Assembly (NCBI GenBank): GCA_022979955.1
Contig: GCA_022979955.1_3642.1
DNA length: 64,000 nucleotides
Strand: one strand, 5' to 3'
Source: a phage
Within the stretch, counting starts at the first letter, position 1, and every line of letters begins with the position of its first letter. Shown one piece after another: positions 12,628 through 61,707 of the stretch. The translations under genes were made by a program, and so were the position numbers. The notes under the pieces are model-generated. The model searched no databases, was not told the origin of the DNA, and was given only the letters and a program-made list of their open reading frames with translations.

Positions 12628-13047
12628 ATGAACATTAAATCTAATAATCCGGCATATAGCTTTGATAACGCTTTTTGTCACGGTCCGGCGGCGAAAGGAT
12701 TCGAAATCGATGGTAAACTAATTATTGTCAATGTTGACGGGGAAGAGGTTGCAGTATATCCGGTGGCAGACGTAAAAAGCCGTTTACAATGCCGCATGGA
12801 TGTTACCGCCTATCAGCTTGATCCGGTCCGCATAGTTGCCCTGGTCCTGGAAGAAGAAATTAAAGCCATGCACCATAGCAACAGATTTATTGGTGACGCG
12901 CAGGATAATATGAAAGTATGCCGCCATAAAGTTAATGAAGTGCTTAAAGAGTACGGCTATAGAGATCTTATGATCAAACGTGAGGAAAAATTCCGCTACC
13001 GTAACGACCTGGCAAATCGGATTTTTGAAATATACGAATCATTATAA
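12628..13047 (+). CDS. hypothetical protein
   Basis: ORF track 139 aa; AAGAGGTAAAAACACC-ATG. Confidence 0.55.
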   Translation: MNIKSNNPAYSFDNAFCHGPAAKGFEIDGKLIIVNVDGEEVAVYPVADVKSRLQCRMDVTAYQLDPVRIVALVLEEEIKAMHHSNRFIGDAQDNMKVCRHKVNEVLKEYGYRDLMIKREEKFRYRNDLANRIFEIYESL

Positions 13048-13065
13048 TTTTTTAACTGAATTATC

Positions 13066-13092
13066 AAGGGGCTTAGGCCCCTTTCTTTTTGT
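13066..13092 (+). terminator. rho-independent terminator ending the + strand early block
   Basis: AAGGGGC-TTAG-GCCCCTT hairpin followed by TCTTTTTG. Confidence 0.55.
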
Positions 13093-13695
13093 CTGCTCTT
13101 CTCCTACCATAAACGGCCCTACCTGGCAAGTGGAATAATTGACTAGCCATCAATCCCACATACTGTACAAATATACATGGAAAATAACTATTGCATAATT
13201 TTTCATTGTGTGGTAGCAAGTCCATTTTTACCCGTTTTCTCTCCCAAAAGTGCACGTAATGCCGCTATTGCACAAATTTTAACCTGATGCACATCTCTAA
13301 TATCTTGTCAACAACTAAAAATCTTTATAAGTCATACACTTACACAGCATCGAAAGCGTGTTCTACGCGAAAAATCGAGTATAACTATAGCCGCCAGATC
13401 TCAGAATTCACGTACGCACGCCATTCTATAGCCTGCAAAGTATTTATTCCAACCACAGAATAACGGAATAGTCAATACCTGCATAAAATAATTATTCGTG
13501 TAAACTGCATAACATAAATCAGCTCAGGTGTCAACATTTTTCGTAAACAGTTCGAAATTGTCACGGTAAGTTATTATACACAGAGAAATCTTTAGTCGTC
13601 TAATGGTTACTATACATTACTAATCTGACTGGAATCATTAGATGACTAATAGAAAGATAAGAAATAATTAACAGTCTAATTATATTAACGATAAC

Positions 13696-13970
13696 AATAA
13701 CAGCGGTTAAAGTCATGGCGCGACGGAGTCGCGACATAATAACACCGAGTAACCCTCACCCCCGTGAGCGTTGCGAATGTTATTATGCCATGACTAAATC
13801 ATTTCAACACGTAACTATAGGCATAACAACATTCCCTCGGTGTTATTATGTCGCTAGTTATTATATAACTGTTAACAATAACGCCTCGGGAATAGTTCTG
13901 CCTGCACGATGTTTATAACAGCAAGTTATGATCAACATTTCACAGATTATAATAACAGCGGTTAAAGTCA
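13696..13970. repeat. 20-bp direct repeat AATAACAGCGGTTAAAGTCA (13696..13715 and 13951..13970)
   Basis: two identical copies read directly. Confidence 0.6.
13731..13854. repeat. 19-bp perfect inverted repeat GCGACATAATAACACCGAG / CTCGGTGTTATTATGTCGC separated by 86 bp
   Basis: arms at 13731..13749 and 13836..13854 are exact reverse complements. Confidence 0.6.
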
Positions 13971-14597
13971 GGCGTAGAAACAGTGGAAGTGTAAACAGTC
14001 AATCATGTAAATGATAAGTATGTGAACAGTTATCCATGTAAACTATTAGACATGTAAACAATCAGGTGTGCAAAAGTGTCAAGGGTGTCACCATTGTGTC
14101 TAAAGTGTCGTATGTCATCAGTATGTCAGACAAGTTTTTCTCCTCTTTGTCAAGTGCTGCATGAAAAATTTACAATCTTGTATGGTAGCATTTTTGCGGT
14201 CCTGTTTACATTCAGAGATGTATGTATAATCCTTGTTGTGTGGGCGTTTAGACGTCTAGACGGTCAGAAGTCTGCAGGTCAATATCTAATCTATTGGCTG
14301 CTAACTATATCCCACACAAATAGTAAGAAATATAATTGTTATATGCGTAAACAGTAACCCATGTTATCAATCCCTGTATGGATCGCCAGTGGTGCGCATA
14401 ATGGGTATTATGTTAAATTGCCCGTAATGATAATGGTTCTCACAATGATATGTATTCTCATTCCCCCACACAAAATAGATTGCAAATGTTGTGCCACTAT
14501 GTGAACGGCCTCACCTATTAATTTGCCTCACTGCCTCGATATTTGAGAATTATTATAAGAATGAGAAGTATTCCCATTTCGTCCGCCTGGCAGCGCT

Positions 14598-14900
14598 CCT
14601 GTAGGTCCTGCAAGGACTCTAGCTGAAAGCTAGACCCTTCGGGCCTCCCTGTAGGTCAGGTCAAAATCGTGGTAGAATTGGGCCTATTCAGATATTTCTG
14701 GCTGGCTCTTCAGGTCTGTGTGGGAAAAGCCAACCTCTCCGGCGGGGCAGGGGGAGGTAAATTAAAAAATTTACGGGGTATATGAAGCGCTCTTCAGGTA
14801 AGGCATGTACTATGGGATGAAACCCTCTTCAGGCAATGATATTTGTGGGTGTGATATTTGCTGGAAAGCCAGATATGACGGGACTCCCGGCGGGGCAGGG
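14598..14900. repeat. cluster of short direct repeats: CCTGTAGGTC x2, CTCTTCAGG x3 (4th at 15238), CCGGCGGGGCAGGG x2
   Basis: motifs read at 14598, 14647; 14706, 14790, 14825; 14739, 14887. Confidence 0.55.
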
Positions 14901-15596
14901 GTAGTACAGACAGGGAAAATATGAGAATGTAGTTGGGGAAATTGATCAGACAGGTAGAGTATGGAATATGTTACAAGTATGTTAAATATGGAGGTTGAAT
15001 ATCTGTAGGATTTGTGTGTAAAATCAAAGACTTAAGGGGTGTTGTGGTATTTTCTATAAATAATTCAAGTTTAATAGGCAATATTTGTCTCTATCCGCTT
15101 TGTGTGGTAAACAGATTCAGATTAGATTGGTTTACAAGTGTATACATAATATACAAATTAAAGATACAAGAAACCCCCCTCCCCCTTCGGCTACCATTCA
15201 CCTTTTCCTCTGACTGGTACTTAAACACTTATTCAGACTCTTCAGGTTATCACCCATATATCATATGGCAGTGACTGGTGTCCTCCGGCCCCTCTTTCGT
15301 CACCCGTCCGCTTCGCCATGCTAATGCCATAGCTAATGGTTCGGTTGTTCACCCTGTTCACTCAGGTGTATCTCTATACCCCTTCAAACCGAAGAGAACA
15401 GAAAACCCGAATTACTCGGTAAAAGAAAAGAGAAGAACTTAATTTTATCAGGATAGGCAAGAATGTCAAGGCATGACTGCTCACTAAACAAGCAAACAGT
15501 CATGTGTGGGAGGTAAGTGATTGTGGTGGTAGGAAATTTAGTTGAAAGATGTGTTATAGGTGCTTCCAGCACTTTAGCCTGGCAGCTAATTGTGTG

Positions 15597-15812
15597 TCAG
15601 TCCAGCGGTTCATCCTCTACTTCACTGAAATCAATGTTCATGGTCTCTTCCCAACCATCGATCTCAGCACAAGAGTGGAGTTCTTTAGGGTTTACTCCCA
15701 AAGCCTCAGCAACAGAGTCTATATTTAACACCTCTGGCAGGTATGTTTCATCGAATTCAAGGTAAATCAGGCCACGAGTGTTGTCAGCTCCACCAAATAT
15801 TTCTATCTTCAT
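15597..15812 (-). CDS. hypothetical small acidic protein (MKIEI... N-terminus)
   Basis: ORF track; last gene of - strand block. Confidence 0.45.
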   Translation of the reverse strand: MKIEIFGGADNTRGLIYLEFDETYLPEVLNIDSVAEALGVNPKELHSCAEIDGWEETMNIDFSEVEDEPLD

Positions 15813-17196: not shown

Positions 17197-17502
17197 TTAT
17201 TCTACAGAGCGTTTGAACAGAATGTCTGCCTCAGACATGTGCTCAACCTCTTCTTCGATTTTAGCGCGACGTTTTTCAGCCTCATAGCGAATATCGAACT
17301 CGGTAGCCACCAGAGATTTGATGAATTTAGGAGAATACAGGTGATCCTGCTTCTCAACGAGAATGATATCCTTAATGGCATCTTTCAGATCTTTAATCTG
17401 AAGTTGGAGTTCTACCAGTTCTTCGATTGTTTTGCGAAGGCGATCACGCTCTGCAGTGTCAGAAGGAAGAGAGGTGAACAGTTCAACTTTAGATTTAGCC
17501 AT
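17197..17502 (-). CDS. hypothetical coiled-coil protein
   Basis: ORF track; charged heptad-like sequence. Confidence 0.5.
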   Translation of the reverse strand: MAKSKVELFTSLPSDTAERDRLRKTIEELVELQLQIKDLKDAIKDIILVEKQDHLYSPKFIKSLVATEFDIRYEAEKRRAKIEEEVEHMSEADILFKRSVE

Positions 17503-25209: not shown

Positions 25210-25446
25210 TCAGTCACTGTTACCATTCTTATCTTCCTCCTTCATTTTTCTGACGGTTTTACAGTGATCTACCAAGCACATAACAACAATGAAGAGAACG
25301 ACAGGCCAAAAAGGTGCGGCAGTGATTATAGTTATAAAGTCGTCAAACTTAATTTTTCTACAAGATATGATGCAAAGAGTTGCTAAAACAACCATTGTCA
25401 GAAAGGTCAATGCGCAATACCAAACCAACACAGTATCTATGGCCAT
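25210..25446 (-). CDS. hypothetical membrane protein
   Basis: ORF track; two hydrophobic segments. Confidence 0.4.
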   Translation of the reverse strand: MAIDTVLVWYCALTFLTMVVLATLCIISCRKIKFDDFITIITAAPFWPVVLFIVVMCLVDHCKTVRKMKEEDKNGNSD

Positions 25447-25447
25447 A

Positions 25448-25975
25448 TTACATCTCCTGGTTCAAACTGTTAAGAAAGGATACTCTGTCTTCGCTATTTT
25501 TCTCTGTGATATACCCTCCAAACATGGAAAGAATCACATGCTTCAAGTAATCTTTTTCTGGGTCGCTTAGATGATTGCGTGGCTTTATTTCCACATCATG
25601 GTAGTCATACAATCCACAATCATGATACCCCCAGTATCGACACACCTCAATACTGATCGGGAGTTTTTTGTCACACGAAACTTTCCAACGGGTTACGTTG
25701 TTACCAGGGGATAAATCCTCGCCCACCTTCACGAATGACAAATCGTAATTCATAAACTTTTCGTGCAGTTTAAGTACAAAACCCTCTACCTGTGGAGAAA
25801 CACCAGCCACTAGCTGGGCGTATCTATATTTACTTTCAATAATTTTTCGGCGCTTTGCTGTAAGGTTTATTGCAGCAATTTGACTCTCTGAGTATCTCCA
25901 AGGCTTATATATAAATGCTTTCGGGTCTTTATCGCCATAAAAATCTTTCCAATCAACCAGTAGCATACCTGTCAC
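25448..25975 (-). CDS. hypothetical protein
   Basis: ORF track 175 aa. Confidence 0.5.
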   Translation of the reverse strand: MTGMLLVDWKDFYGDKDPKAFIYKPWRYSESQIAAINLTAKRRKIIESKYRYAQLVAGVSPQVEGFVLKLHEKFMNYDLSFVKVGEDLSPGNNVTRWKVSCDKKLPISIEVCRYWGYHDCGLYDYHDVEIKPRNHLSDPEKDYLKHVILSMFGGYITEKNSEDRVSFLNSLNQEM

Positions 25976-31299: not shown

Positions 31300-32292
31300 T
31301 CAGCAACCACAACTTCCGTAGTGCTTAACTCGCTCGATAACTTCCGCTTGCTTACCTTTATTGTAAGGACGGGAGTTAGGACTGGAAAGATATCCAGACA
31401 CTCTTCGGATCACTGAGATATATTGTTCATCGTGGCATCCACACGCAGGGCAGCAGAACCCTTTAGCTGTTGCACTGAACTCACCAGAGAAACCGCACTT
31501 AAGACATTTATCCACAGGCTGGTTAATACCAAAATACATAATGTGTTTATATCCGAAATCAACAAGAGCTTCCAAAGCATCTAAGTTGTTTTTCAGATTT
31601 GGTGTCTCTATGTACCCAATGTTGCCACCAGAGGAGATCATAGCAAAACCTTCCTCATACTTCCACTTATCAAAAGGCGAGCTATTTATCCATACTGGCT
31701 GATGGAAACTGTTGGTGAGATATTCATGCTCATGCTTCAACACTTCAGGATATTCACGATCCAGACAGGTTGCAGCTTTATAGCATAGACTCTCAGAAGG
31801 GGTGCCGTACAAGCTAAACGCTAGTCTACTTTCCTTCTTGTATCGCTCACAAGCATCTCTCATGTGCTGAAGGATTCCAAGAGCTAAAGCCTTGTCACCC
31901 TCTCTGCCCAAAATCTGACAGGTTTCATACACACCAATATACCCAATACTGATGGAAGCGTACCCGTCATAGAAGAGTTTATCAATACTCTCTTCAGGAT
32001 CCAGGCGAGCAAGAGCGCCTTCACACCACATGATAGGGTTCTGCCCTGCCTTGGTGCCTTTCAGACGGTTAACCCTTACAAGGTGAGCTTCATATGCCAA
32101 ATCCAGATACTCGTCAAGAACGGCAAAGAAATCAACACCTTCCGTCTTAGCTTTTGCCGCAATCATTGGTAGGTTAAGGCTAACAACACCCAAGTTGAAT
32201 CTGCCGAGGTATTTCTCCTCGCCTGTTACAGGGTCGCTATATTTCGATAAGAAACTTCTACACATTATGTTCAGGGTGGTTCGCAAGTCCAC
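31300..32292 (-). CDS. nrdD: anaerobic ribonucleoside-triphosphate reductase, C-terminal exon (glycyl-radical domain)
   Basis: GRFNLGVVSLNLP, Zn-site cysteines CLKCG...CPACGC, glycyl radical motif RVSGY; exon boundary upstream of 32292 not resolved. Confidence 0.7.
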   Translation of the reverse strand: MDLRTTLNIMCRSFLSKYSDPVTGEEKYLGRFNLGVVSLNLPMIAAKAKTEGVDFFAVLDEYLDLAYEAHLVRVNRLKGTKAGQNPIMWCEGALARLDPEESIDKLFYDGYASISIGYIGVYETCQILGREGDKALALGILQHMRDACERYKKESRLAFSLYGTPSESLCYKAATCLDREYPEVLKHEHEYLTNSFHQPVWINSSPFDKWKYEEGFAMISSGGNIGYIETPNLKNNLDALEALVDFGYKHIMYFGINQPVDKCLKCGFSGEFSATAKGFCCPACGCHDEQYISVIRRVSGYLSSPNSRPYNKGKQAEVIERVKHYGSCGC

Positions 32293-33015
32293 CCCCGCAC
32301 CTTTACGTGCTGCTGCATGTTCCCATGCAGATCAGACTATATCTTCACACTTAGTGTGTCTACCATTTCGAGTGTCATCGGCTTACACCCTACACCGCTA
32401 CATTCATCACGGTTAGTCGTTAGGCATTTCGTAACAGAACTCGTAATCATAGTTATTAGGCGCACCACGTTTCAGGATAGCAGATATTCTTTTTCTATCC
32501 ACTCCTAAAACATCAGCACAACATCTCAGACTTTTAAAGTGGAAAACCTCACCAGTTAATTTGTTGGTGGCTTTCACACCGTGGCATCTTGTGTAAAAAG
32601 CATAACAGTTGTTGTTGTATCCTTCTTGCGTATTGTCTGGGCAAGCTCCCCACTCAAGGTTGTATACACTGTTATCTTTCCTGTTGTCCCCTTTGTGCTT
32701 AACATAGGGTAAATTGTCTGGATTTGGTAAGAACGCTTCAGCAACAAGTCTGTGAACCCTTAGGCAAACAGTCTTTTTGTTCTTGCGTATCCTAACAAGA
32801 CGGTAACCTGTGTTTATCTCTTCCCACGAATGAATAATTCTTTCATTTTCGTAGCGGGTGCAATAAACATTGCCCATCTCGTCAATTTCATAACCTTCAA
32901 AATCACGAATTTGTTTTCTCATTTCAGGACTCCTCTTGGTCAGGAGTTCTGTTACGTTTAGCACGGGATTGTCCGTTCTGGAGTTTCCCCGTTTAGATAG
33001 ATTTTACATGAGCAG
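32293..33015 (-). mobile_element. putative group I intron in nrdD carrying an HNH homing endonuclease gene
   Basis: nrdD reading frame interrupted; free-standing HNH ORF with own start inside. Confidence 0.5.
32413..32964 (-). CDS. HNH homing endonuclease
   Basis: HRLVAEAFLPNPDNLPYVKHKGDNRKDNSVYNLEW pattern typical of phage HNH endonucleases. Confidence 0.7.
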   Translation of the reverse strand: MLNVTELLTKRSPEMRKQIRDFEGYEIDEMGNVYCTRYENERIIHSWEEINTGYRLVRIRKNKKTVCLRVHRLVAEAFLPNPDNLPYVKHKGDNRKDNSVYNLEWGACPDNTQEGYNNNCYAFYTRCHGVKATNKLTGEVFHFKSLRCCADVLGVDRKRISAILKRGAPNNYDYEFCYEMPND

Positions 33016-33270
33016 TTATAGTTTACCCATGCTCGTTACTTTACCATCTGTCGATCCTGTCACTTTACGATTTAGTGGAACAGAGACAAAGTCAGGATAA
33101 ATCCGCTCTGCAGAGCATTCCAGAGCTAATCGTTTCAAATCATAGTTAGGATCTCCAGGGTTCATGTTGACACCATCTTCTAGGAAGAACAGCACTTTAG
33201 GGAACACAGGTGTGATACGTTCTTCACCAAGACCCATTTTGTGGACTTTCAAGTAGTTTTTGGTAATCAT
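33016..33270 (-). CDS. nrdD: probable middle exon of nrdD
   Basis: segment PVFPKVLFFLEDGVNMNPGDPNYDL..CSAERIYPDF resembles class III RNR core; boundaries not resolved. Confidence 0.4.
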   Translation of the reverse strand: MITKNYLKVHKMGLGEERITPVFPKVLFFLEDGVNMNPGDPNYDLKRLALECSAERIYPDFVSVPLNRKVTGSTDGKVTSMGKL

Positions 33271-33578
33271 TCTACCAAATACTGAGGTGTCCAGACCTAA
33301 ACTTAATGTGATAAAAGGGGTTTGCGGTCCCCACCCTTATGTTTCCACAAGGCCAGACTATCTCTTGCCTGAAATCACACCGTGTGATTCTTAATCAGAC
33401 CTCTGCGTTTCGGAATCTTCCATAATCCCTACACCAAAAGGTTAGTCGTTACAACCGCCTCACTCCTTGTGAAGCTAGTCACGGGATTGGCATAGCTTGA
33501 GCCTTAGCGTTCCCCGTTAGCCAGCGATCAGCTGACCCCTCATACTGAGGTTAGCAGAGTTTTAAAACGGCCAGCTTG
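33271..33578 (-). other. putative ORF-less group I intron (or spacer) within nrdD
   Basis: about 300 nt GC-balanced, stop-rich sequence between two nrdD-like reading frames. Confidence 0.35.
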
Positions 33579-34442
33579 TTAACCGTTGACAGAAGTTAAC
33601 GTATTGATTTGATAGAGCAAAGTCTGCATGCTGTCAAATACGTCTTTATCTGTCATTTGCATTGCAACAGTCTCAGCATCTGGCAACCAATGTTCCTGGC
33701 AAAATTTAAGGTTCTTCTCATAGGTCGCTTCAGCATACTGTGCCAGATAATGATCAATATGGCTCATAGTCTGACCCCCATATTGAGCACTAGCTACTGC
33801 ACTAGAGATTTGGCTAAGGATTGTTGTTGCAACCCCTATTGACTTAGGCTTACTGACATGGGCGTTACCAATGTTGAATCCGTTTTCCAACATATCTGGA
33901 TAATTTACCAAACAACAGTTTGTTAACGGACTAATCAAGTAGTCAAGATCATGCACATGGATGAAGCCTCTATTGTGCTCTTCTGAGACACGGTCTGGCA
34001 GGATCTGTGTTGATGCAAGGTGTTTGCTAAGGATGCCTGCAAGCAGGTCACGATGAGTGTGTACATGATTGGTAGGCTTATTTGCGTTTTCTTTTGTAAA
34101 TTCATCACAAGTGCGATCCAAGAAGCCACTAATATCTGCAAGCAGTTTTCCACCTGCCTCTCTGTTATTATCTCTTGTCTGCCTATACTGGATGTATTCT
34201 CTGGCTGCACATTTTAAACCCATATCCATAAAAGCGTCTTCAACAAGGGTATGGATATTTTCTACAGAGATCGTGCACTGGTCGGTTGGTAGATTGTTAG
34301 CAACAACTTCATTAACCGCGCAGGCGATCCGGTAAGCTTCTTCTTCAGTATGTCCAGACTCAAGTAAGGCGGACTCTGCCGCCTTGATCACCTTAATCCC
34401 GTTATATACCTCTTCTCTACCGTCCCGTTTTACAACTTTCAC
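33579..34442 (-). CDS. nrdD: anaerobic ribonucleoside-triphosphate reductase, N-terminal exon (ATP-cone)
   Basis: N-terminal ATP-cone-like MKVVKRDGREEVYNGIKV; continues into class III RNR-like sequence. Confidence 0.7.
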   Translation of the reverse strand: MKVVKRDGREEVYNGIKVIKAAESALLESGHTEEEAYRIACAVNEVVANNLPTDQCTISVENIHTLVEDAFMDMGLKCAAREYIQYRQTRDNNREAGGKLLADISGFLDRTCDEFTKENANKPTNHVHTHRDLLAGILSKHLASTQILPDRVSEEHNRGFIHVHDLDYLISPLTNCCLVNYPDMLENGFNIGNAHVSKPKSIGVATTILSQISSAVASAQYGGQTMSHIDHYLAQYAEATYEKNLKFCQEHWLPDAETVAMQMTDKDVFDSMQTLLYQINTLTSVNG

Positions 34443-57830: not shown

Positions 57831-57927
57831 GCTAGGTAAGCCCTTTGGCAAGGGCGAGGATTTTTAATCCTGAAAATAGACGAGGTAGTCGTTGAATACA
57901 TAGGTGGTTCGATTCCACCGCCTAGCA
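57831..57927 (+). tRNA. atypical tRNA-like gene (anticodon loop TTTTTAA, nominal Lys-UUU) with about 30-nt extra arm
   Basis: acceptor GCTAGGT/GCCTAGC, D-arm GCCC-TTTGGCAA-GGGC, T-arm GGTGG-TTCGATT-CCACC; 4-bp anticodon stem; no encoded CCA. Confidence 0.35.
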
Positions 57928-57933
57928 CCTTTT

Positions 57934-58993: not shown

Positions 58994-59277
58994 GAGTTGC
59001 TACACTGTTTATTGCGTGCTTGTTATTATGTGGGTGTGCAACCAGTGTTGAGAAAGAATACAAGATTGACCCTCCAGATGTAGGAAGGTTGATTGTTAAA
59101 CCCCCAGAAGGTGCCATGAAACCACCTGCTAAAGCTATGCCTTTGAAGAAAGGTGCGCCAGATGCAGTGAACTCTGGCATTATGAGGGATAATAATCTGT
59201 CTTGTAGCAATGATAGAGCTAAATTGATCATTTTGCAAGACTATATTAGAACACTGTTTCCAAAGGAGAGAGGTTAA
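58990..59277 (+). CDS. putative o-spanin (Rz1-like lipoprotein)
   Basis: signal peptide with lipobox LLCGC; Pro-rich mature region; ATGA overlap with upstream gene. Confidence 0.5.
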   Translation: MRVATLFIACLLLCGCATSVEKEYKIDPPDVGRLIVKPPEGAMKPPAKAMPLKKGAPDAVNSGIMRDNNLSCSNDRAKLIILQDYIRTLFPKERG

Positions 59278-59705
59278 TGTCTAAGATTTACGGACCGTGT
59301 TCTGAAAAGCAGAAGATGATCCTAGAAAACGATGCAGATATTTTGGTAATCGGCGGTGCCGCAGGGTCTGGCAAGTCGTTCCTCTTGCAGTTGATGCCAC
59401 TTAAAATTATTGATGACCCCCACAGCTCTGTGGTTATGTTCCGAAGAACAACCCCACAGTTGGAAGGTGAGGGTGGACTATGGCCTAAAGCAGTAGCTAT
59501 TTATAGTGATCTGCCTGAAAACATTAAGCCAAAGTTCAGAGAGAAGGATCATAAGTTCATTTTTCCACGGTTTGATCCGAACACTGGCAAGTGGGATAGG
59601 AGCAAAAAGGGAGCTGTTGTAAAATACTGCCACATGGAGTATGTACAAGATAAGCTTAACCATCAAGGGCTTGAGTACACCATGGTTTGCTTCGATGAGG
59701 GTTAA
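59277..59705 (+). CDS. terL: terminase large subunit, N-terminal exon (ATPase Walker A/B)
   Basis: Walker A VIGGAAGSGKS, Walker B-like MVCFDEG immediately before stop; C-terminal part resumes at about 60619. Confidence 0.6.
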   Translation: MSKIYGPCSEKQKMILENDADILVIGGAAGSGKSFLLQLMPLKIIDDPHSSVVMFRRTTPQLEGEGGLWPKAVAIYSDLPENIKPKFREKDHKFIFPRFDPNTGKWDRSKKGAVVKYCHMEYVQDKLNHQGLEYTMVCFDEG

Positions 59706-60640
59706 TTTGTAGCTCTCGTAAAACCTCCCTAATTGCGGGGAAATCTTTATTATTGACACCACCAACCTGTTATGGTAACATAATAGAGGCTTCGAAGAGA
59801 GATCGAAGGTATGGTAATAGTGTGTTAATTTAGATAATCCGCAGCGAAGCATCCGAGAGGATGAACGTTCAACGACTAGTCGAAAGACGTAGAATCAAGC
59901 GATTCGAAACGGGAGGGTGAATGTGTAATACTAAAAAATGTATGGATTGTCAAAGAGTTCTACCTATTGATGATTTCTTTTTATCATCTAAGAGCAAGGA
60001 TGGATACTCAGGTACATGCAAGGAATGCTATATGTACTACAGGAAGGGTGGATCTCGTAAAAACAAAAATATGGTTAAGAGAGATGACGCAGCATTGTTT
60101 ATTCAAGACTTGCTGAAGAAAGGTGAACTTTTTGAATGCAAATCTTGTCATGAAAGTATGCTCGCTGATAGTTTTTACACAAAACGTGACTATGGTAAAG
60201 TATACCTGGTTACGAACAGGTGTAAGATGTGTGAAAAGTTTTATCAGATTGAGAAAAAATTTCACATAACAAAAGATGAATACTATCGTCTACTCTCAGA
60301 TCAAGATCATAAGTGTGCCATTTGTAGAATATCTCTTGATGAGTATAGGACGCAAGGGTACAGAGATTTCTTTTGTGTTGATCATGACCATAAAACTGGC
60401 GCTGTAAGAGGGTTGCTTTGTGATAAATGCAACAGAGCTTTAGGTTTCTTCCAAGAGGATGAGGAAACTATTCTTAGAGCGGCAGAGTATTTGCACATTC
60501 ATAAGATATAGTCTGGTCTGCATGGAGACATGCAGCTGCCTGAAAATGGCGGGGCAAGACTAGCGACCTTGCCCGAACATAAACGACACAATTCGAATGG
60601 GAGCAGATAGACTACCTGATGTCTCGTTTGCGATCTCAGT
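59706..60640 (+). mobile_element. putative group I intron in terL carrying an HNH homing endonuclease gene
   Basis: terL frame interrupted right after Walker B; structured-looking flanks; free-standing HNH ORF with own SD; boundaries approximate. Confidence 0.5.
59921..60511 (+). CDS. HNH homing endonuclease (endonuclease VII-type motif)
   Basis: CVDHDHKTGAVRGLLCDKCNRALG motif plus N-terminal Cys-rich region; GGGAGGGTGA SD. Confidence 0.7.
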   Translation: MCNTKKCMDCQRVLPIDDFFLSSKSKDGYSGTCKECYMYYRKGGSRKNKNMVKRDDAALFIQDLLKKGELFECKSCHESMLADSFYTKRDYGKVYLVTNRCKMCEKFYQIEKKFHITKDEYYRLLSDQDHKCAICRISLDEYRTQGYRDFFCVDHDHKTGAVRGLLCDKCNRALGFFQEDEETILRAAEYLHIHKI

Positions 60641-61707
60641 CAAAGTATCCATCAAGGATGGTTATCAGCTGTAACCCTGATTCAGAACACATGCTTGCCA
60701 AACTGGTTAGATGGTGGTTGGACGATGAAGGGTATCCAGATCCGGAGAAATGTGGTAAGAAAAGATATTTTATCCGACGCGACGGTGAATTTATTTGGGG
60801 AGACTCTAAGGAAGAGTTGATAGAGAAATACACCACGGTTAACGGACTGGGTGTAGAGATCAAGCCAAGACCGTTGTCATTCTCGTTCATAGGCGCAACA
60901 ATATTTGATAATCCTGTCTGTTTGAGAGACAACCCAGAATACCTTGCTTTCCTCGAAGGTCTGCCAGAGCTGGAAAAAGCTCAGCTTCTCCATGGTAACT
61001 GGTTTGCAAAGCCTGAGGGTGCAAACTATTTTCAAAGATCTTTCCTTCGTGATGCCGATAGAGTACCCCTTGGATCAGTATCTTGCAGGGCATGGGATAA
61101 GGCAGGAACCGAGAGAACTTCTGGCAATAAATTTCCTGACTTTACTGCCAGTATTAAGGTAAGTAAAGATAGCGACGGCTTTTATTACCTGTCAGGGGAT
61201 TATTGTCCTGAAAACGTGGATGACGGGAGGTATTCCACAGGTCTGGAAGGCAAGTTCTGTAAAAAGGCTGGTGAACGAGATGTGATCATCAGGAAACAGG
61301 CGCAGTTTGATGGTGATGATTGCATAATCGTATTCTCTGTGGACCCTGGTCAGGCAGGTAAGAGTGAGTTCTTAACCTCATCCAGATCCTTGCTCGCCGA
61401 AGGGTTCAGGGTTGAAGAAGACCCAATGCCTTCCAACAAATCTAAACTGACAAGGTTCTCACCTTTTGCCAATCTTGCACAACAAGGGATGGTGAGGATT
61501 GTAAAATCCAGTTTCCATCCTGATACTCTGGAAGCATTTCTGACTGAACTTGAAAAATTCAACGGGGAAAGATCAACATTTAACAGAAAAGACGACTGGG
61601 CAGACTGTGTAGCTTCTGCGATTAATTTCCTGGAGAAAGAGGAGGTAGCACTTCCTTGTGTGATTCCATCAATCTCATCACCTTCTATGTTCAAGCGTTT
61701 TATCTAA
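60619..61707 (+). CDS. terL: terminase large subunit, C-terminal exon (nuclease domain); true exon start unresolved
   Basis: continues terminase after the intron (ISCNPD segment near start); size and position before portal. Confidence 0.55.
   Translation: MSRLRSQSKYPSRMVISCNPDSEHMLAKLVRWWLDDEGYPDPEKCGKKRYFIRRDGEFIWGDSKEELIEKYTTVNGLGVEIKPRPLSFSFIGATIFDNPVCLRDNPEYLAFLEGLPELEKAQLLHGNWFAKPEGANYFQRSFLRDADRVPLGSVSCRAWDKAGTERTSGNKFPDFTASIKVSKDSDGFYYLSGDYCPENVDDGRYSTGLEGKFCKKAGERDVIIRKQAQFDGDDCIIVFSVDPGQAGKSEFLTSSRSLLAEGFRVEEDPMPSNKSKLTRFSPFANLAQQGMVRIVKSSFHPDTLEAFLTELEKFNGERSTFNRKDDWADCVASAINFLEKEEVALPCVIPSISSPSMFKRFI

Follow-up and report, generated by a model that had tools for sequence, protein, structure and literature searches.

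The window analysed here (the entire stretch of DNA under study, 64,000 nucleotides) belongs to an rV5-like phage (Vequintavirus), with 121 phage records matching positions 13000-15000 at 88-96% identity, and carries at 13690-13970 a non-coding module of ~275 bases in which a long inverted repeat is enclosed between direct repeats. Judging from the comparison of related genomes, the module is real and under selection, belongs to the Vequintavirus chromosome end and is the best-conserved non-coding feature beside the terminal repeat. From its position and conservation, the module probably serves the handling of the DNA ends. The explanation that we favour, at a probability of about 0.4, is an accessory, end-associated cis element that would act at the DNA level in folded form.

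Location of the module at the chromosome end

The chromosome ends of Vequintaviruses are defined and carry direct terminal repeats of 458-459 bp (PMC6563267; PMC7471380). When the terminal repeats annotated in phage Gotham, which are identical to each other, are mapped onto the window, the direct terminal repeat, 459 bp, falls at 14129-14587 (without strand assignment); the physical left end is position 14587, and the genome runs leftwards from there. These ends are independently supported by the records of four other phages that end at 14129 and of one that ends at 14588. The module lies 158 bp from the left terminal repeat, on its inner side, and thus in the first unique DNA at the left end of the chromosome.

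The surroundings are poor in genes. The module sits in a ~2.5-kb gap that is free of genes and is bounded by convergent gene blocks, the plus-strand genes stopping at 13047, with a terminator at 13066-13083, and the minus-strand genes starting near 15600, so that the nearest conserved gene is ~650 nt away on the left and 1.7 kb away on the right. The immediate left neighbour of the gap is a 139-aa gene (12628-13047; phrog_12277, function unknown) that is polymorphic in these phages, being present in rV5, LL12, naam and phita32 and absent from FV3, EdH4, Gotham and Alma. About 50 nt to the left of the module, there is a second hairpin (13592-13649, TTAGTCGTCTAATGGTT with AATCATTAGATGACTAA, 17-nt arms and a 24-nt loop), which is found in FV3 too. 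The unique non-coding DNA of the right end contains two copies, 148 nt apart, of a G-rich 18-mer, CCGGCGGGGCAGGGGGAG (14739-14904), and a 20-nt repeat at 14782 and 14817.

The interval between the module and the terminal repeat is filled with arrays of short repeats (13990-14128, plus strand, as for all features of the module given below), namely, 15-16-nt units of the TGTAAACA type followed by TGTC units, which abut the terminal-repeat boundary exactly (...TGTCAG before the boundary, ACAAG after it). Among the relatives, the arrays are 115-219 nt long, with widely different copy numbers and 66% mean identity. These arrays are good candidates for terminase recognition, better ones than the folded module.

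Repeat architecture and predicted fold

The initial annotation described a 19-bp perfect inverted repeat around 86 bp, and this is confirmed: the left arm, GCGACATAATAACACCGAG, at 13731-13749, and its exact reverse complement, the right arm, at 13836-13854, are 19 nt long and 100% complementary, with 86 nt between them, and would form the outer stem of a three-way junction. There is no other long spaced inverted repeat within the 64-kb window; the base composition yields a chance expectation of ~1.4e-4 for such inverted repeats, and the longest one in 30 shuffles of the window was 13 nt. The 20-bp direct repeat that was said to flank the whole unit is there as well. The 20-mer AATAACAGCGGTTAAAGTCA has exactly two copies in the window, starting at 13696 and 13951, and the repeat extends to 26 nt at 92% identity, with a left copy, DR-L, at 13690-13715 (perfect 20-mer at 13696-13715) and a right copy, DR-R, at 13945-13970 (perfect 20-mer at 13951-13970); ~3.7e-5 such direct repeats are expected by chance. 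The arms are placed asymmetrically within this frame, the left one beginning 15 nt past DR-L and the right one ending 96 nt short of DR-R. In the spacer that leads from the folded core to DR-R (13855-13944), the sequence found before DR-L recurs in a third, partial copy at 13860-13882.

Shorter repeats are superimposed on this layout. The direct repeat of the window matches the left arm at 14 of 17 nt, and the 9-mer ATAATAACA recurs in alternating orientation at 13736 (+), 13778 (-), ~13822 (+), 13841 (-) and 13949 (+). Such repeated 9-mers are concentrated in the module and not spread over the genome.

A small G+C-rich hairpin at 13719-13733 abuts the outer stem, consisting of CGCGAC (13719-13724), the loop GGA (13725-13727) and GTCGCG (13728-13733). 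A hairpin at this place had been claimed with seven pairs, but only six (CGCGAC/GTCGCG) are found. Its 3' arm covers the first 3 nt of the long repeat, so that the two structures compete for three pairs.

The supposed loop of 86 bp has the length originally given but is itself structured. It contains hairpin A (13750-13773; AACCCTCAC, loop CCCC, GTGAGCGTT) and hairpin B (13775-13834; arms 13775-13789 with 13820-13834, 15 pairs and a 30-nt loop), the latter with one A.C that becomes G.T when read on the minus strand. With these two hairpins inside the interval, a single strand is predicted to fold as a three-way junction. DNA folding gives a minimum free energy of -36.1 kcal/mol, with z = -10.6 relative to shuffled sequences, and RNA folding of both strands, which had been proposed as a check, likewise indicates structure, with z-scores of -5.4 for the plus strand and -5.9 for the minus strand. 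On the minus strand, G.T wobbles turn hairpin A of the relatives and hairpin B of the window into perfect helices.

A deeply remodelled allele

In about 118 relatives, the same architecture is built by a different allele. The homology between the window and the relatives ends at 13767 and picks up again at 13989, and in a search of all phage records, the module matches over a core of 55 nt (13714-13767) only, at no more than 89% identity. The direct repeat of the relatives consists of two copies of a different 19-20-mer, ATGCAAACGAATGGCATGG, in the same position. The GGA hairpin is common to both alleles and shows no substitution among 14 relatives. The outer stem of the relatives has 18 bp (GACATAATATAAAAGCAG with CTGCTTTTATATTATGTC); the first 9-11 nt of the left arm are shared with the window, and the junction-proximal part differs, with the differences compensated in the right arm. 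When the two outer stems are set in register, there are 13 identical pairs, 4 compensatory changes, no one-sided change and 1 base lost from both arms; these pairs were counted by explicit, register-checked comparison, the MAFFT alignment having put the right arms out of register. The presence of four compensatory changes along with zero one-sided ones indicates that the inverted repeat is selected for pairing.

The inner helices have fared differently. Hairpin A is kept in the relatives with one compensatory pair, C-G in the window and A-T in the relatives. Hairpin B of the relatives is longer and is made from a different motif, GGCAACTAT, that occurs four or five times in their allele, as two GGCAACTAT-N10-ATAGTTGCC palindromes; in the window, hairpin B has new arms, and its loop retains relics of the arm (GTAACTATAG) and of the loop (AATCAT) of the relatives. 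The outer-stem arms of the relatives lack the repeated 9-mer and yet are perfectly complementary across ~120 nt. Both alleles are predicted to give the same fold on both strands.

Beyond the folded core, the segment that follows the right arm in the window resembles one spacer type of the relatives, in which the spacer before DR-R is hypervariable (41-121 nt, with ~15-nt repeats and 59% mean identity). The shared architecture, the relics in hairpin B and the likeness next to the right arm jointly argue that the window allele is a deeply remodelled homologue rather than foreign DNA. Neither its arm nor its direct repeat has an exact match in IMG/VR or GTDB genomes; nothing similar past the 55-nt core was detected in phage records, E. 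coli genomes or plasmids, and a search for more divergent alleles via the conserved hairpins returned the same rV5-type contigs only. The 19-bp arm, for which the initial annotation proposed a search elsewhere, does not recur as an exact sequence in the databases searched, but the relatives keep the folded shape with another sequence. Among these databases, the remodelled allele is unique to the phage in the window.

Conservation of the module in Vequintaviruses

Variation within the rV5-type allele was assessed by comparing 14 rV5-type sequences. From DR-L to the right arm, 12 of the 184 columns vary, and 7 of these fall in the 26-nt loop of hairpin B (binomial P = 5e-4); the left flank, in contrast, has 73 variable columns out of 290, and the terminal repeat has 46 out of 298. 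Within this allele, the paired parts are almost invariant, and the flanks are ~8% different. Three relatives have a 33-nt insertion in the hairpin-B loop, with the stems intact. The module is present, with its architecture kept, in ~118 of ~119 distinct relatives. The searched literature contains no description of the module and no experiment or transcript data for the locus.

An empty site and the fate of the direct repeats

The sole empty site among ~120 records is that of phage FV3, where a single direct-repeat copy, ...GGCAACTATGCAAACGAATGTCATGGC, is followed directly by TTATCAT..., with nothing between. This one-copy site identifies the module as a discrete, dispensable indel, and the genome of FV3 implies that the module is not essential for growth, that is, non-essential in the laboratory. 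The module is present in the close relatives of FV3, L011 (a metagenome contig) and Pr121LW, whose repeat shows the same T variant as that of FV3; a loss in FV3, by deletion between the direct repeats, is therefore the most parsimonious explanation. Palindromes are known to stimulate deletion between flanking direct repeats. The suggestion that the nested layout resembles a recombination site or a miniature mobile element footprint is partly upheld: the unit is discrete, and the empty site in FV3 fits recombination or slippage, but a classical mobile element is not what is seen here.

Two further accounts of the direct repeats were tried and rejected. Target-site duplication does not agree with the difference in the repeat sequence between the alleles, given that the DNA just outside is homologous. 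Concerted evolution of the two copies would be compatible with L011, in which the G-to-T change is present in both, but Pr121LW has G in the left copy and T in the right one.

Relationship to known classes of elements

In size (~125-275 bp), the module is similar to MITE, ERIC and REP elements, and like them it has an inverted repeat inside, direct repeats on either side and, in one relative, a precise empty site. It differs from them, and from classical mobile elements, in being single copy per genome, at a fixed site and confined to this genus, with no module-like copies in E. coli genomes and, among plasmids, a mis-filed phage genome as the sole match. Besides, the arms are not terminal, and the direct repeat of 20-26 nt, with its 20-nt duplication, is far above the usual length of target duplications, a short 2-10 bp.

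Among RNA families, Rfam 15 reports only tRNAs for the whole window at the gathering score and no match for 13000-15700 at E <= 1. There is no terminator-like site on either strand in 13600-14000, and a promoter scan around the module gave nothing convincing, the best -10 candidate losing its final T in the relatives. The ORF at 13715-13918 was dismissed as a coding sequence, given that the relatives, starting from the same conserved ATG, stop after 9 codons. A search for antisense or guide targets showed that the 11-mers and 12-mers of the module do not occur elsewhere in the window above chance (5 11-mers shared with the rest of the window versus 18 for random segments). The plus-strand topology agrees with that of a retron msr-msd, a weak feature that any three-way junction would share; the locus has no adjacent conserved gene, hence no adjacent reverse transcriptase, and Rfam finds no retron match in 13000-15700.

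The module does not qualify as a DnaA-box cluster: TTWTNCACA occurs 12 times in the window, compared with 8.5 expected, and nowhere within 13690-13990. A terminase recognition site with fixed spacing was rejected as well, the distance between DR-R and the terminal-repeat boundary ranging from 115 to 219 nt in the relatives. No protein that co-varies with the allele was found in the 64-kb window, which is the scope of this comparison, ~73 kb of the genome lying outside. Except for three small unrelated segments, the rest of the window is 90-97.6% identical to rV5_ev168, and the large terminase (59277-59705 + 60619-61707) belongs to a block with 97% identity; none of the ORFs in the window was recognised as a small terminase subunit, those upstream of the large subunit being spanins.

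The equivalent locus was not located in other genera of Vequintavirinae by means of a marker protein (17197-17502 in the window); in KpS8, GAP31, CR3 and Kashira, the marker lies in a long co-directional operon, and the chromosome end has not kept its synteny. When the terminal repeat was used as the query of a sensitive DNA search, only Vequintavirus records were retrieved. The PhageMaP essentiality map turned out to be irrelevant, its phage Bas63 being a Felixounavirus.

Comparison with signals at other phage chromosome ends

The injection-stop-signal region of T5, Repeat Region 3, borders the left terminal repeat on its inner side (bioRxiv 10.1101/866236; PMC13250531). Like the module, it combines conserved untranslated direct repeats, inverted repeats and palindromes where the left terminal repeat meets unique DNA; their conservation exceeds that of many neighbouring sequences, and in both cases secondary structure and/or bound proteins are the proposed mode of action. 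The differences are that the T5 region has paired DnaA boxes and the module has none inside, that the terminal repeat of T5 is ~10 kb long and contains genes compared with 459 bp here, that there is no sequence similarity, and that two-step injection, which depends on pre-early genes, is known for T5 but not for rV5-like phages.

In T7, an inverted repeat at the concatemer junction reportedly forms a 'hairpin end' during the duplication of the terminal repeat (Chung, Nardone and Hinkle, 1990, cited in PMC11482910). The resemblance consists in an inverted repeat near a short direct terminal repeat that must be duplicated when concatemers are cut, and by this analogy, hairpin-end duplication would be the favoured mechanistic model for the module. 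However, the T7 repeat is said to lie on the right-end side of the junction, whereas the module is on the left-end side, and the module is dispensable in FV3.

The packaging sites lambda cosB, P1 pac and SPP1 pac resemble the module in that short motifs recur in both orientations, no more than a few hundred bp from the packaging cut. The cosB site of lambda lies at a fixed distance from cosN and varies together with the small terminase subunit, with lambda and phage 21 carrying allelic cosB versions of different specificity. The spacing of the module, in contrast, varies by ~100 nt, and no co-varying protein is found in the window.

The complementary-strand origin of G4, the n' site of phiX174 and ssiA/ssiB of RSF1010 are hairpin clusters that are active only in single-stranded DNA, and the RSF1010 ssi signals are arranged as a large inverted repeat beside iterons. 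These ssi/primosome signals are similar to the module in being hairpin clusters with very stable G+C minihairpins. Unlike ssi signals at replication origins, the module lies at a point of converging transcription, a position that gives no hint of a main origin. Overall, the module resembles repeat and palindrome clusters beside phage terminal repeats and yet fails the specific tests of each of the named families.

A putative DNA element acting in folded form

Under the favoured explanation, the fold would form on single-stranded or strongly unwound DNA, during end replication, resection or concatemer processing. Each strand would present the GGA-triloop hairpin stacked on a stem of 16-19 bp that opens into a three-way junction with two hairpins, and this fold could be recognised by DNA-handling proteins of the phage or the host, such as a primase-helicase, SSB, a junction-specific nuclease or the terminase. 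The preferred role would be to prime or anchor DNA synthesis across the neighbouring terminal repeat, so as to help duplicate the repeat when genomes are cut from concatemers or else to set the last lagging-strand start near the end; to this specific role, priming or terminal-repeat duplication, which is an inference in the spirit of the T7 hairpin intermediate and of hairpin priming signals, we would assign about half of the probability of the general reading. The 20-nt direct repeats may be paired recognition sites around the fold and would also allow its precise loss by slippage. With a spacer of 86-120 nt, extrusion of a cruciform from duplex DNA is unlikely, so that the model needs single-stranded DNA, which is an assumption here. 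The maintenance of the multi-helix shape by compensatory change is best explained by function in the folded form, and the variation by ~100 nt in the distance to the terminal-repeat boundary speaks against a spacing-dependent role in the choice of the cut site.

The same helices could be those of a structured non-coding RNA gene, with a transcript of ~125-300 nt that would adopt the three-way junction and could serve in cis or in trans as, for instance, a regulator, processing site or decoy. The retention of helices by compensation, the variable and expandable loop of hairpin B, the RNA folding z-scores for the two strands and the room that the long gene-free region offers for RNA genes are all compatible with this possibility, and the perfect helices that the minus strand of both alleles gains through G.U pairs suit an RNA equally well, which counts against a DNA-only reading. 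Nevertheless, we regard an RNA gene as unlikely: no Rfam family is matched even with the relaxed threshold, there is neither a conserved sigma-70 promoter nor a hairpin with a T-run on either strand, the stems are long, perfect and A+T-rich, the loops GGA and CCCC are not the usual stable RNA loops, the stems within the rV5-type allele are invariant instead of drifting by compensation, complementary targets are lacking elsewhere in the window, and the flanking direct repeats are left without explanation. Several features favour the DNA element over the RNA gene: the module lies by the terminal repeat among the arrays and is flanked by direct repeats, its long stems are perfect, A+T-rich and nearly invariant within the allele, it has the C-GGA-G minihairpin, and transcription signals are lacking. 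Minihairpins in which C-G closes a GGA triloop reportedly belong to the hyperstable DNA type described by Hirao, Yoshizawa and colleagues. Somewhat less probable again is an array of binding sites in duplex DNA, for instance, for a terminase recognition subunit or an end-binding protein, as in lambda cosB, with the two alleles representing two specificities, the inverted and direct repeats being mere sites in either orientation and no folding involved. Such an array would account for the repetition by each allele of a 9-mer of its own (ATAATAACA or GGCAACTAT) in alternating orientation, for the concentration of these motifs in the module, for the resemblance of the direct repeat to the left arm in the window and for the location among repeat arrays beside the packaging cut site. 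It does not explain why the outer-stem arms of the relatives, devoid of the 9-mer, are perfectly complementary over their long separation or why hairpin A shows a compensatory change; besides, nothing encoded in the window, the large terminase included, co-varies with the allele, the distance to the cut site is not conserved, and FV3 does without these sites.

The module could also be a selfish or neutral palindromic insertion that does nothing for the phage, with arms kept perfect by template-switch correction, occasional loss by slippage and, possibly, spread by co-infection. Correction of quasi-palindromes and palindrome-stimulated deletion between direct repeats are established mutational processes, FV3 with its one remaining repeat copy provides the precise presence/absence that such an insertion would produce, and the greater uniformity of the rV5-type allele relative to its flanks could mean that it spread recently. 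We nevertheless find this improbable, given that the module is a single copy at one site in one genus, with none in hosts or plasmids, and is kept in nearly all genomes despite its deletion-prone architecture; moreover, the few substitutions cluster in one loop, which points to purifying selection rather than a sweep, a deeply diverged second allele keeps the multi-helix architecture, and the arms are subterminal within the direct repeats. Just as improbable, in our estimate, is a module of exchangeable specificity, in which the GGA hairpin, hairpin A and the base of the outer stem would serve as a constant scaffold for helices that can be swapped, between two identical 20-nt flanks, and the variable parts would specify a trans-acting partner, either a protein or a nucleic acid. 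This idea is entertained because the alleles differ in paired and flanking segments, the scaffold is constant, and the window allele is unique in the databases searched; such a module might set end identity or packaging compatibility among co-infecting relatives or, alternatively, be a transcribed three-way-junction RNA or a DNA decoy against host defence, for example, a retron-like mimic.

Implications

The rV5-like phages, which have been isolated widely, are components of cocktails for phage therapy and biocontrol, and we know of no cis-acting signals described at their chromosome ends. The function of the module is directly testable with three natural genotypes: the common allele, the remodelled allele of the window that keeps the shape, and the clean deletion in FV3. 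Should the folded DNA element indeed take part in the duplication or processing of the terminal repeat, it would provide a handle on DNA maturation in phages with short terminal repeats outside the T7 group and would matter for the engineering and rebooting of rV5-like genomes. Conversely, if the module proves to be without effect, it would be a clear case of a palindrome held in shape by mutational mechanisms.

Additional observations in the window and in database records

Elsewhere in the window, the nrdD gene (anaerobic ribonucleotide reductase; 31300-34442, minus strand) is interrupted relative to rV5_ev168, with two segments, 32255-33024 and 33326-33582, that have no counterpart there. 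The ORF at 32413-32964 (183 aa) within nrdD resembles a homing endonuclease, so that the interruption may be due to one or two mobile introns or to the insertion of an endonuclease; Rfam reports no group I intron at nrdD. Another segment without rV5_ev168 homology, 25351-25765, overlaps the start of the ORF 25448-25975 (175 aa, minus strand) and also a small membrane-like ORF, 25210-25446. The large terminase is split into 59277-59705 and 60619-61707, with an ORF of 196 aa (59921-60511) in between, and in rV5_ev168, the terminase is annotated as two joined pieces with an endonuclease VII-like gene inside; the split is probably an intron or endonuclease insertion. Within the tRNA cluster, ARAGORN calls a 99-nt tRNA-like gene with a four-base anticodon (atcc) at 57831-57929 that is not reported by the Rfam tRNA model.

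Some database records also call for comment. At the module locus, 18 or 19 'Campylobacter phage' records (MG0656xx) are 92-98% identical to E. coli rV5-like phages, and given this degree of identity, they are probably mislabelled or contaminants. The E. coli 'plasmid' CP057073.1 in PLSDB, 137.6 kb in size, is evidently an rV5-like phage genome.
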